Assembly (NCBI GenBank): GCA_964016885.1
Contig: OZ024740.1
Span: forward strand, 378,882,001-378,946,000
Origin: Eledone cirrhosa
Taxonomy: Eukaryota
Reading direction: 5' to 3'
Length of the DNA stretch: 64,000 nt
Below, in pieces: positions 4,961-52,217 of this stretch (within the stretch, counting starts at the first letter, position 1; the number at the start of each line of letters is the position of its first letter). The notes under the pieces are model-generated. The model searched no databases. It saw only the letters and a list, made by a program, of their open reading frames with translations, and was not told the origin of the DNA. The position numbers and the translations under genes were made by a program.

Positions 4961-5155
4961 TTATTTCGGGTTGAGTCGGAGGTAACCACAGTAAGTAAGG
5001 TACTCAATGCATAGCAGAGTATAAAAGTTTTAATATAGAAGAGAGCTTCGACAGTACTAGAACTGTTTCATTCGTGAGAAATCATCAGGGCTTCCTGATG
5101 ATTTCTCACGAATGAAACAGTTCTAGTCCTGTAGAAGCTCTTCTATATTAAAACT
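4961..5155 (-). mobile_element. Fold-back hammerhead cassette, family H1 (tail 4961-5025, arms 5026-5089/5094-5155)
   Basis: Inverted repeat read directly. Related copies at 46035-46150 and 59966-60147. Confidence 0.8.
5090..5138 (+). ncRNA. Type I hammerhead ribozyme (with a mirror core on the minus strand at 5045-5088)
   Basis: gcttc CTGATGA t ttc tcac gaa t GAA acag ttctagtc ctgt A gaagc: stem I gcttc/gaagc, GUA cleavage triplet. The minus-strand copy has GUC. Confidence 0.85.
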
Positions 5156-6328
5156 ATATATGTATATATATATATATATTTTAATATATAATTTATATAT
5201 ATATAAATTTAAAGATAATGCCACCCACACCCAGCGCATCAGCAAGGAATCTTACTTTATTAACAAATACGGACCCCGTCTAAACACTTCTCCCTAAGAC
5301 GAACCCACAACATACACACGTCAACATACATACCTACATCAGCATACATCTCTATCCACATATAAACACAATGACATACGTAAACACACATGTTCTATGG
5401 TGCAACACAAATATACACAAATTTGCATACCTTTTGATGTCTATAGATATAAACGTGCCGACACACAACATACATAAACGCACACATGCATTGCACACTG
5501 ATGGGCACATAATATTTGTACACAAGTATTCCAATACGGCAAGGCCTAATGGATTCCCCTTGCAGTACGTACAATCTGGACACTCACACACACCTTGGTA
5601 TTATGCCAATACTATATATCATTTCATACCTTTTATTATTAAGGTTTTTGATGTTCTATTGAGAGAATCGTTTTTACTGAAAATATCGAATAATGTACAC
5701 CATTTCACCAGTATCACAGAAATAAATACTGGTCCCCCCCCCCACACACATATATACACACACACATACACACGCGTACATTAACATACAAAGAGACATA
5801 CACACACACACACACACACACACACACACACTTCTCCGTATAAGACAAGAGCTGAAAAATATCTTTTAACATGTTAAAATATCCCCCACACACTTACAGA
5901 GACACATTCCTACTGACCATCCCTCTACCACGAATTACTCTGCTACACACACACACACACACACACACACTTGTCTTAATAGGCATTTGAACTGTCAACA
6001 GGCTGCGGTTCGCACACACATCACTGCTGACCATTATCACAACAACGAACCTCTTTACTACTACTACTACACACACACACACATATTTGTTTTGAAAGAC
6101 TTATTTTTCAGTGACTTCTCAATCAGCCGACACAAACCTACATTTGGCGCAAAATCAATTTTTAACATTCACATGACCTCTACCAACAAATCAAAATTGT
6201 TTTGACCACAAAAATTTTTGCAACACGAATTGGCGCGAAACTTATTTTAATACCGCTGGAGCCACTTTTTTCACATAAAAACAGGTAGAATTCCCAAAAC
6301 TAATCAGATTAGAGCAAACATCACGGAC

Positions 6329-6494
6329 GCTCTATCTCAAAATTATTTTTCAAAAGCATTAGAAATGCGCAACCGGTAAAACTTAAAACCAAAACTGAAT
6401 ACTAACCAGTACTATTACTAATTCTCACTTATTCCTAATTAAATTATTTTTCACCGTGAACAATTTGTCGGCATTTTCTTTTCCGTTTACCAAT
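6329..6494 (+). repeat. Dispersed repeat, probable PLE terminus; inverted copy at 21182-21358
   Basis: Shared GAAATGCGCAACCGGTAAAA..TTCCGTTTACCAATA, ending in (TA)n in both copies. Confidence 0.55.
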
Positions 6495-6530
6495 ATATAT
6501 ATATATATATATATATATATATATATATAT

Positions 6531-6779
6531 ACTGGTAGAACACGGGAAGTTAATATCCGTAGTGGTAGAGCACTCAGTCCATGGGACGAGTTAGGTAGAA
6601 GTGTTTACATAACACTTAGTTCACCATACCGAGAACAATTGTTTCACCTTAGCGGATCCTCAGCTCGTAATGAACATGGTTATACGGCCGCATAACCATG
6701 TCCATTACGAGTTGAGGATCCGCTGAGGTGAAACAATTGTTCTCGGTATGGTGAACTAACTGTTGTGTAACCACTTCTA
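6531..6779 (-). mobile_element. Fold-back hammerhead cassette, family H2 (tail 6531-6595, arms 6596-6687/6688-6779)
   Basis: Imperfect palindrome centred on TATACGGCCGCATA, flanked by (TA)n. A decayed fragment lies at 46978-47044. Confidence 0.8.
6630..6667 (-). ncRNA. Minimal type I hammerhead ribozyme (mirror copy on + at 6708-6745 with C3->U)
   Basis: Minus strand reads cgag CTGAGGA t cc gctaa gg t GAAAC AATT GTT ctcg; stem III is the palindrome AACAATTGTT. Confidence 0.8.
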
Positions 6780-7920
6780 TATATATATATATACACACAC
6801 ACACATATATATATATATGTATAAAGAGAGAGAGAAAGAGGGGGATATATATATATATATATATATATATATATATATATATATATATATATATATATAT
6901 ATATATATATATATATATGTGTGTGTAAGCCGCTCAGTCTGCGATGACTCGAGGGCTAAAAAAAACTCCCAACAACAGTGGTATAACCAAGAGAAAGAAA
7001 CAGTAATGAATACATAAATAATATATTTTATGGCAACTCTCTTGTCTGAGACAGGTCAAGATTAACGAACAAATTCTATTTAAAATACATACAGTATGTT
7101 AGTTCTCATTATCTACTTAGATTATATTAGAGTACTTTCTTATTCCAATTCTGATTTTCCGTTTATTTTTAAGTATATCATATTTTCATATATTTTTGTA
7201 TCCATATTATTGTTTTATCATTTTAAATTGATGTCTGAAACAGTAATAGTTGTCTTAATACATTTTACGTTTACAGCAAAAAAAAAAAAGGTTTAAAATA
7301 GAACTACACTCACACGCACTTTCACACAGACAGACATACAAACTGATAGACAGACACACGTATGTATATATGTATGTATGCATGTAAGTATGTATGTATG
7401 TACGTATGTATGTGTAAGCATGTATATGTATGTTTGTTTATGTATCTATTCTTTTATAGATACCTAACATAACTGTAATTTTGGCTCCTGTGTTTTGTCG
7501 TTTCATTTATTAACTATATATATATATATATATATATATATATATATATATATATATATATATATATATATATAAATATATATATATATATATATATATA
7601 TATATATATATATATATATAAATATATATATATATAAATATATATATATATAAATATATATATATATAAATATATATATATATAAATATATATATATATA
7701 AATATATATATATATAAATATATATATATATATAAATATATAAATATATAAATATATATATATATAAATATATATATATATAAATATATATATATAAATA
7801 TATATATATATATATATATATATATATATATGTATATATATATATATATATTGTCATTTCATTTATTAACTATATATATATATAAATATATATATATATA
7901 AATATATATATATATAAATA

Positions 7921-50351: not shown

Positions 50352-50702
50352 ACTCTCAGGTCTGAAATAATAGGAGAGGTGGCAATAATGGGGTGACGTG
50401 GTGGTGGTTTGTATAGTATAGTGTACGTTCGTAAATATGGGATTTCTTATAATGTTCCTCTTTTGTCATATATAATGTTTTTTTTTAATGTAAAATAAAA
50501 TAATTATTAGATTCTCCAGCTGCTATATCAATATGAATCACTTACTATAAAATTTCGCCGAAGATAGATCAGCGGAATTAAATAAGCGGGTGGGGTGGGA
50601 TTGTGGCGTTGGAATAAAACCCAGGGGGGGGGGGAGGAGCATTAGAAAAGATCTGACAAATTAATAAGTGGGGGTGGGGACGATTATTCAAGACCTGAGA
50701 GT
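50352..50702. mobile_element. MITE
   Basis: TIRs ACTCTCAGGTCTGAAATAAT / ATTATTCAAGACCTGAGAGT. Confidence 0.6.
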
Positions 50703-50759
50703 ACGTGAATTATTGAAAGAAAGAAAGAAAACTCAATACAGAAGTAGAATTTAAGTATT

Positions 50760-50890
50760 CCTTTATTATGGCTAAGCCTTGTTAATCTGGAGTCTCACCT
50801 GTGTACATCGGATCATCAGACAAGACTGGTGATCCTGTGAGTACGCAGGGGAAACTTTAGAGTAACAAAGCTCACCAATAGCGATAAAAA
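50760..50890 (-). mobile_element. Decayed fold-back hammerhead cassette
   Basis: Minus 50778-50824 reads cttgt CTGATGA t cc..gg t GAGAC..TA acaag; the plus arm has GAAACTTTAGAGTAACAAAG. Confidence 0.5.
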
Positions 50891-51919
50891 TGAATGTATA
50901 TATATATATATATATATATATATATATATATATATATATATAGTATTAAGGATACTATTTATGTTTATGTATATACTAAAACCTTTTATAGTTATATATA
51001 TTTTATACCCTAAATAGTGAAAGACAGTAATTTATTACTATCTTATTACCCGTAAGATAGAAGGTAATCATCCTAATATGTACACCTTTAGTACTTCTTG
51101 ATAGACTAAACTGTAATTTATAGATAAGATACTTAAATTTAGAAATTGTTTATAACCTTATATGATAGGAACACATTTGAGACACCATTAATGTACTTTA
51201 GGATAATAAATTTAGCTATAGAAATCAGCTAGTTACCTCCCCTTACGCATTAACTCCCCTTAATCACACACACACTTCCGGAATATAATACGATGTCAAC
51301 TCTCACAACAAAAACAACCTGCTCTATAGAATCGAACTAAAGAACGACAAGCTGTGATGTTCTAGCATGATTCACCAGGCACCCAATGTTGAATCATCGT
51401 GGATTGTGAGATGGACATGTAGTCTATAAATTGCGTTTCCTGGATTGTGAGAGTGGTGCTGTTTTACTTCTCATTTGTAATATTTTTGATATTTTTGGTG
51501 TTTCTCTACACACGGGATTCTATATCGTACAGGTGTGTGTGATAATGCTTTATCAGTACAGCCACCATGATGCTCTTGATTGCCTGCTTTGACTGCTTGT
51601 TTTACATGTAACAATCTGCCGCACTATAATCTTGTATAAATAGGACACGCGTGCATGCCACACGTGTGACTGTTGCATACACTGGCTACTCCAAACTTTC
51701 CTCTTGCTTTATCTTAGTAAACTGCCAATGTTTTATTTTAATTTTAATTTTAATTTTAACTTTAATTTGTCCTTTAATATGACTGTAATCTTTGTATGTA
51801 AATTACCATGCTATATTATTATAATGGATGTCAACCCACTCTGGGTCAATATATACATATGTTTCTATATGTCTCTTATGCTGAAAAGGAGGTCAAGTAT
51901 GTTAAAAATCACTGAATAA

Positions 51920-51968
51920 TTGCTCCGAAGATTCCAAACCTCGGTTTGGAAGAAACAATTGTAAGCAA
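51920..51968 (+). ncRNA. Minimal hammerhead in 5' pseudo-LTR (core variant CCGAAGA)
   Basis: ttgct CCGAAGA ttccaaacc tc ggtttggaa GAAAC AATT GTA agcaa. Confidence 0.75.
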
Positions 51969-52217
51969 ATAAATGATTTAAACAGAACTTTGATTCATGT
52001 AATCTCTATATAACTGCTCTGTAAAACAACTGATGTTGTTACATTGAGCTATTTATCTTACGGGTAATAAGATAGTAATACATTACTGTCTTTCACTATT
52101 TAGGGTATAAAATATATATAACTATAAAAGGTTTTAGTATATACATAACCATAAATAGTATCCTTAATACTATTAACTGCTCCATACTGTTGAGCTGACA
52201 TACAATAAATTACCACT

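Follow-up and report, generated by a model that had tools for sequence, protein, structure and literature searches.

A duplicated, bulged hairpin just past the insertion ends of Hydra-type Penelope-like elements in Eledone cirrhosa

Penelope-like elements are the closest retroelement relatives of telomerase, and in this group the choice of an internal start by the reverse transcriptase (RT) and the tail left at one end of an insertion were open questions. According to the accessible text of PMC8557442 (section 11), elements of the Hydra clade encode a C-terminal GIY-YIG-type domain, RW(K/R) and DKT motifs and a CxCx5C linker, carry a hammerhead ribozyme in their pseudo-long terminal repeats (pseudo-LTRs), target (TA)n tracts, and leave inverted arms with a tail at one end. 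For the Poseidon element PAc of an Anolis lizard, the available part of Frangieh et al. 2024 (PMC11167929) reports that reverse transcription in vitro starts at two internal RNA sites bounding the tail, that RNA 3' of these starts is needed, and that both target strands are nicked and extended, and a dimer is predicted. Here we analysed a window of 64,000 nucleotides from Eledone cirrhosa (NCBI GenBank assembly GCA_964016885.1, contig OZ024740.1, positions 378,882,001 to 378,946,000, forward strand), part of a 3.0-Gb, (TA)n-rich animal genome, in which a near-full-length Penelope-like element (50940-56243) lies among many short inverted fragments. In elements of this type a small bulged hairpin is present twice, each copy a few bases past one of two sharp insertion ends, named here the short and the long end, and insertions with two ends nearly always combine one of each.

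The elements of this genome share with the Hydra clade of PMC8557442 all of the marks listed above, whereas their tails measure about 55-180 nt, compared with 30-40 bp in the accessible description, and their units reach 3.1-6.7 kb; the words 'hairpin' and 'stem-loop' have 0 occurrences in the text and supplement text available for that source. With PAc they have in common two fixed ends bounding an optional tail and AT-rich targets, the starts being deduced here from genomic ends. PAc differs in being a single element of another clade and in starting inside the open reading frame (ORF), in an 'AC-rich stem loop'; neither a conserved or duplicated signal nor a rule of one short and one long end is described in the available part of PMC11167929. 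The clade, the tail and internal initiation were already known, while the hairpin, its duplication and the pairing rule are apparently new, no description of them having been found in Rfam or in the literature searched (subscription journals, Repbase and Dfam lay outside this scope).

Hairpins and insertion ends

From 5' to 3', the element has the ribozyme, then the short-end site with hairpin 1 after it, and then the long-end site with hairpin 2, which precedes the ATG. In the window element, on the plus strand, the upstream pseudo-LTR (51053..51995), a direct repeat of 55266-56231 with 95.9% identity, is closed by a putative minimal type-I hammerhead ribozyme (51925..51968, core 51925-51955). 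Hairpin 1 (52016..52049) lies 3' of the short-end site, and hairpin 2 (52179..52195) lies 3' of the long-end site, some 22 nt 5' of the ATG at 52218. The ORF (52218..54660), split over three frames, encodes an RT plus, at the C-terminus, a GIY-YIG-type domain with Hydra-clade motifs, and has intact relatives in L027 and L028. The downstream pseudo-LTR (55266..56243) contains the same ribozyme (56161..56204) and finishes at the short-end site, 8 nt short of where hairpin 1 would begin, with no hairpin after it. On the minus strand, an inverted arm starting at the long-end site (50940..51059) copies about 52054-52173, its end at 50940 stopping 5 nt short of hairpin 2. In the window and in the genome families, pseudo-LTRs end some 35-100 nt past the minimal hammerhead core.

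The initial annotation, made from the window alone, had named ten such hairpin stretches beyond the points where arms stop. All ten are present at the coordinates and on the strands it gave, and for nine of them there is a nearby sister arm that gives way to a microsatellite a few bases short of the hairpin, the exception being 45914-45933. It had also placed a hairpin after both boundaries of the full-length element; the copy at 52179 is indeed there, although such a second hairpin turned out to be the rule in full-length copies and not peculiar to one element.

The genome sample comprised 200 kb of neighbouring DNA, 400 kb from arbitrary places and about 60 loci picked for long ORFs, with 1.2 Mb used for end calling. 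Families, each with two sharp ends, were anchored on their ribozymes and not on the hairpin, and ends were called against natural reference copies, with a microsatellite flank required. This test was not blind, as the ends were known before the hairpin positions were fixed and many loci had been selected for full-length elements; metagenome loci and published consensi served as out-of-sample tests (see below). A hairpin began 3-10 nt past most of the called ends (n = 156/180), bearing out the spacing first proposed, and 166/180 ends fell within -2 to 14 nt. The remaining 14 comprised 11 plain (TA)n tracts matching an AT-rich loop, two long ends in families without a sampled second hairpin, and one divergent copy with its end 17 nt upstream. 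In nine families both ends were measured, with sharp modes at 2-8 nt in nearly all, and the modal end sites mostly finished in a TA or AT step matching the (TA)n target.

A second hairpin was found directly past the long end in full-length or tandem copies of families FL, H3, F4, FA, FB, FC, H2 and D, and was also present in C, F3, F10 and F19; it was damaged in the FLb reference and decayed in H6. For H1, H6b, F13 and F17, no copy continuing past the long end occurred in the sampled DNA.

The two ends were not combined at random. Among 175 ends entered in the pairing count, 90 formed 45 outward-facing pairs of the same family and 85 were unpaired. Forty-four of the 45 two-ended insertions consisted of one short and one long end, and none of two long ends, whereas an independent choice of ends would mix about half of them; the corresponding probability, calculated by hand, is 46/2^45, or about 1e-12.

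Structure and distribution of the motif

The literal pattern (A/G)CTC..GAG(T/C), proposed initially as the motif, was found 33 times in the window against a mean of 30.4 in 20 local shuffles, which is chance level, whereas the bulged form with its closing pair was enriched (13 versus 3.05 shuffled, range 1-7). In the refined motif, a stem of 4 bp (RYUC/GARY) is combined with a U-N bulge on its 3' strand and with a closing pair that covaries. Its loops vary in length and sequence, as had been noted, and they also begin with a covarying upper stem, which the view of a kept stem with free loops had not included. The bulge, the generality of the second hairpin and the rule of one short and one long end had all been missed.

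Structure was scored by script in 82 distinct hairpins selected by the outer 4-bp stem alone. The first bulge base was U in 80/82, and the closing pair was Watson-Crick in 79/82 (56 C-G, 23 U-A; shuffle mean 46, maximum 58), as were the next two pairs in 52/82 and 44/82 (shuffle means 26 and 21); 0/5000 shuffles matched these counts. Since shuffles ignore kinship, changes were also counted on a protein tree of 33 loci, where the closing pair of hairpin 1 underwent six changes per side, six of them joint, and that of hairpin 2 was nearly fixed. Among families of this genome the outer stem covaries too. The subset of equal-length hairpins was nearly invariant in alignment, and MAFFT failed on 5' arms of unequal length. 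In families FA, F4, H2 and D (L087:6838 region, L056:3445-3520, L118, L104) the loops reach about 70-110 nt with core and end distance kept, a tolerance in keeping with a folded strand rather than with a site in duplex DNA.

A mix-up with stem III of the hammerhead, whose letters are similar in other species, was considered and rejected because the distance from the ribozyme to the hairpins downstream of it is about 40-100 nt. In the available File S2 of PMC8557442, stem III of several Hydra elements shares four-base arms with the outer stem of the hairpin.

For a wider survey, an alignment of seven ORFs recovered 78 loci in public metagenome contigs at 30-41% identity, of which 72 were scored; those dropped (L149, L152, L187, L197, L203, L204) had their match at a contig edge or lacked the N-terminus. 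In viral contigs, 175 pattern matches were obtained and 0 were confirmed. The 65 ORFs compared (58 from metagenomes, seven from this genome) formed 39 clusters at 70% identity. RW[KR] was found near the N-terminus in 60/65, and also in the window ORF; DK[TS], with DKT in place of DKG, was found in 61/65, the window ORF having DKT; and a CxCx4-6C linker preceded the C-terminal endonuclease in 64/65. YIG/YVG, CxxC and CxH endonuclease motifs were seen by eye, and a CCHH motif was, also by eye, absent from the Hydra-type ORFs and present in the control family L011. The Pfam GIY-YIG match was weak (E 0.0036, below the cut-off, in one of eight window proteins). The putative hammerhead in the pseudo-LTR was found by our own core-and-stem scan; with Rfam, 0/137 matches at E<=1 reached the gathering score and none was a ribozyme. 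Insertions lie in (TA)n, a point partly circular because the end caller demanded a microsatellite. In a fold search the best matches were telomerase RTs, with none Penelope-like among the matches listed. Judged by motifs rather than by an RT tree with named references, the elements appear to belong to the Hydra clade. At least three very young Hydra families (L087, L093, L108) have dozens to about 150 endonuclease-identical copies each and many intact ORFs (813, 772 and 809 aa), and endonuclease searches of the genome returned about 50,000-64,000 first-look candidates.

In the 72 metagenome loci, the density of the core in the 200 nt before the ORF match was 8.46 per kb, a ten-fold excess over shuffled sequence (0.86), compared with 0.89 per kb in the ORF and 0.89 in random genome; on the opposite strand it was 1.96 per kb upstream and 2.19 in the ORF. 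The motif is therefore scarce elsewhere in the elements, as the initial annotation required of a signal. At least one core was present in 59/72 loci and two or more in 37, hairpins 1 and 2 being 55-83 nt apart in 34 loci. Second copies within the metagenome contigs numbered 41, of which 15 reach the contig or query end, and 18/26 informative ends lay 0-11 nt 5' of a hairpin (one judged by eye). Among the Hydra consensi of File S7, inspected by eye, the motif was clear in 3/6 (one coral and two sea-cucumber elements), one of these three carrying both copies at its 5' end; it was looser in octopus and copepod and absent in one incomplete coral consensus. The fixed spacing and the covariation, across families and phyla, uphold the proposal of a conserved cis signal that explains the asymmetry of arm and tail.

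The motif had been described as cross-family, which it is among Hydra-type families, although not every Penelope-like element has it: in this genome it is absent after the end sites of two non-Hydra families (DKG, CCHH). The L011-type clade (L011:4583-8604, L205-L234, L265-L280) encodes an 877-aa ORF and likewise ends at two sites, one short and one long, separated by about 40 nt. Each is followed by its own conserved sequence, the long end may be spanned by base pairing, and the task of the hairpin may be done there by a different signal.

Priming on the element RNA and competing explanations

Since the hairpin adjoining an end is absent from the target as well as from the inserted copy, it must act on the template or on an intermediate. 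The original suggestion had been that it positions either GIY-YIG nicking or internal RT initiation; internal initiation fits best, whereas a nick on the new target cannot be placed by the hairpin, since the called ends abut a hairpin-free microsatellite. From the comparison of ends and copies, we consider it probable that each hairpin docks the RT on the element RNA and makes cDNA start 3-9 nt upstream, and two start sites set in this way would explain the lopsided insertion ends.

In such a scheme the GIY-YIG domain would nick a (TA)n tract on both strands, and the resulting 3'-OH ends would each anneal to the AU step preceding a hairpin. Hairpin 1 would thereby serve one target strand as priming site and hairpin 2 the other, the simplest arrangement being a single RNA carrying two RT subunits. 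The cDNAs would stop at unequal lengths and be joined mid-way, giving inverted arms, one of them with a tail, which would correspond to the spacer between the two hairpins. As copying starts 5' of the signal, a new copy would regain its hairpins only via a tandem or circular template, and this would be why pseudo-LTRs are needed; a circular template for such elements is proposed in the available text of PMC4209133. Instead of one RNA with two RT subunits, priming may be sequential, or two RNAs may be held in one asymmetric particle. A more specific version, in which a dimeric RT-endonuclease binds both TAR-like hairpins of one RNA via Tat-like arginine stretches and primes both nicked strands at once, is tentative and in our estimation rather doubtful. 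In the twin priming of L1, primers from both target strands also produce an inverted insertion, and the second site is opportunistic; in the elements described here, both sites are fixed, each with its own copy of the signal.

The same facts can be read in terms of DNA, with the GIY-YIG endonuclease recognising the hairpins in a single-stranded or extruded cDNA intermediate and cutting a few bases 5' of them, so that ends arise by resolution. Staggered cuts could likewise yield one short and one long end, folding does not discriminate RNA from DNA, the tail is attributed to 'EN-mediated resolution' (EN, endonuclease) in the accessible text of Craig et al. (PMC8557442), and the Penelope endonuclease required tail sequence for plasmid cutting, as cited in the available part of PMC11167929. 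We regard this role as unlikely, because the ends lie at microsatellite junctions, mostly in the matching TA or AT step, as priming predicts, the targets have no hairpin, spacers of 6 to over 100 nt disfavour a duplex site, and PAc RT starts at both limits of its tail in vitro (PMC11167929, available part). The strand of action is itself weakly fixed by the hairpins, as is taken up below.

Processing signals of RNA are typically structured and act at a constant offset on their 5' side, and AATAAA was seen by eye between the ribozyme and the short end in some families; both would fit hairpins that direct RNA cleavage or 3'-end formation just upstream, with the RT starting, like that of R2 or L1, at the RNA 3' ends produced. 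In that case the short and the long RNA would be different molecules, with no reason for every insertion to receive one of each kind, as happens in 44/45; there is moreover no poly(A) after the ends, AATAAA is missing by eye in several families, and initiation of PAc is internal and not at the RNA 3' end (PMC11167929, in the part available), all of which leaves RNA processing with a small probability. The position of hairpin 2, some tens of bases 5' of the ATG in most loci, and the conservation without pairing of three post-stem bases in 69/82 hairpins would suit an expression leader, that is, a promoter element or a means of cap-independent translation of the ribozyme-cut RNA, with the proximity to ends as a by-product. 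This last reading is very improbable: ORF-less units retain both hairpins, and the distance from end to hairpin is constant to a few bases, while the spacing of the hairpins ranges from 55 to about 180 nt.

Returning to the docking of the RT on the element RNA, several observations weigh against it or narrow it. Regarding structure, the strand on which the motif acts is weakly fixed, with G-U versus A-C counts of 9 to 3 at one position and 3 to 5 at another, and folding energy shows no preference (better on the antisense strand in 43/82 hairpins and on the sense strand in 30/82). The 2-nt bulge is in the minimum-energy fold of 34/82 hairpins only, the bulge of family H2 is one base, an A in H2 hairpin 2, and the sole F17 copy fails at the closing pair. 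Regarding distribution, the core is missing from the 200 nt next to the ORF match in 13/72 metagenome loci, 8/26 informative metagenome ends lie away from any hairpin, no full-length H1 was found among 30 loci, so that hairpin 2 of H1 was unseen, and one insertion (L119) joins two short ends. Non-Hydra families show two ends without this hairpin, which is then not the sole route to a tail, and four ribozyme families of unknown clade (6, 7, 9 and 11) end at (TA)n without the motif. Finally, 5/69 uncensored long-arm boundaries fell at most 15 nt upstream of hairpin 1, with no pile-up there or at the short site, so that there is no sign of two RTs colliding on one RNA. Such a collision was rejected as a candidate, the pile at -67 reflecting the H1 reference and the choice of query.

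More speculatively, the hairpin may be recognised through an arginine pocket of the type of the trans-activation response element (TAR), formed by the invariant bulge U together with the G-A that follows it and pairs with U-C, and read by a conserved R-x-R preceding WFNPP. The base before the bulge U was G or A in 81/82 hairpins; the G-A/U-C pairs were part of the selection in that set and are invariant in alignment A2. The stretch before WFNPP averages 3.3 arginines per 12 residues in 60 ORFs (background 5.1%), two of its arginines being kept in 63/65 ORFs each, and in the predicted model (overall predicted local distance difference test score, pLDDT, 87.6) it lies beside a low-confidence linker. 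In the part of PMC6189040 that was available, the arginine sandwich of HIV-1 TAR and 7SK has, like the hairpin described here, a purine, a bulged U, G-A-G over C-U-C and a pyrimidine, the TAR bases named being A22, U23, G26, A27 and G28 with C37, U38, C39 and U40. Unlike in TAR, the loop here closes the other side (a permuted topology), the bulge has 2 nt and there is no conserved apical loop; with a loop on the other side that varies in length and sequence, and without the apical hexaloop that tops the G-A-G stem of TAR, the hairpin is not a homologue of TAR. As a point against such recognition, the arginine stretch may equally be a nuclear localisation signal.

Other copies, ORF-less units and implications

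Besides the full-length element, hairpin 1 was located in several families of the window. In H1 it lies on the minus strand at 5002..5020, in a mini-element with inverted arms at 5046-5149, at 59998..60016 and, decayed, at 46080..46098. The minus-strand copy of H2 (6572..6591) has a one-base bulge, shared with both hairpins of full-length H2 copies. On the plus strand, the H3 copy (10689..10708) is accompanied by a ribozyme core at 10583-10624 and a sister short arm at 7924-8124, and two H3-like copies occur at 31858..31878 and 45914..45933, the latter having no sister arm within 6.5 kb when searched by script. H6b has its hairpin 1 at 34857..34881 (minus), H6a at 36075..36099 (plus), with the outer pair mismatched, and F13 at 14473..14513 (minus), in an inverted element at 14399-17208. 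Hairpin 2 of the ORF-less family F3 is at 11477..11497 (minus), where the copy 11500-11083 runs from the long-end site to the short-end site, and another hairpin (32019..32055, minus) is within a solo tail-like piece flanked by two short TA runs. Five of these copies, at 46080, 36075, 14473, 11477 and 32019, were absent from the initial annotation.

Copies starting exactly at the short- or long-end site, as solo tails or tail-less units, were observed at L119:4828-4998, L244:3008, L033:5251, L122:6077 and window 32019-32055, and (TA)5 lay within 22 nt upstream of 17/456 motif matches. H1 mini-elements (window 5046-5149; L235-L264) often invert near one point just 5' of the ribozyme core, which may be a recurrent RT stop or a microhomology join, although such copies were favoured by the query. 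At window 36237-36398, two arms of a hammerhead-bearing family related to F4 form an almost perfect palindrome, about 160 bp long. Other repeats of the window are two non-LTR retrotransposon 3' fragments (2224-3237 and 47125-48758), 99% identical and with a zf-RVT domain; a dispersed repeat of about 190 bp, similar in size to a short interspersed element (SINE), with at least seven copies (among them 917-1110, 24195-24555, 40640-41017, 42190-42382 and 46503-46695); and arrays of a 71-bp purine-rich tandem repeat (49083-50350 and 30352-30659).

The ORF-less tandem units F3, F10 and F19 (542, 486 and 485 nt), located at L010:8123-8664, L016:1786-2271, L122:6353-6837 and window 11083-11500, each have a putative type-I hammerhead and keep both hairpins; a comparison with the 65 Hydra ORFs gave no match to them. 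They resemble the non-LTR retrozymes of bioRxiv 10.64898/2026.07.22.740005, in whose available text ORF-less tandem type-I hammerhead units derived from pseudo-LTRs are described and no cis signal for mobilisation is named, whereas the units found here retain both hairpins. Their sequences suggest that they are retrozyme-like passengers of Hydra elements. The four motif-less hammerhead families were seen at L043:5391-6642, in L027, L067 and L073, in L079 and L082, and in L055, one of them in 310-nt tandem units; one of the four sits 1.3 kb behind a Hydra endonuclease in one locus.

To the questions of internal start and one-end tail, these results contribute a signal some 20 nt long that is found across the clade, a rule of distance, and the rule of one short and one long end. 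The hairpin marks where Hydra elements truly end and is a candidate cis signal in the ORF-less retrozyme-like units, and a portable hairpin setting the start of target-primed reverse transcription would be of interest for gene-insertion engineering. Programmed twin priming, if true, would be a distinct mechanism of retrotransposition, and a single model would then cover the need for pseudo-LTRs as well as the tail and the inverted arms of these elements.

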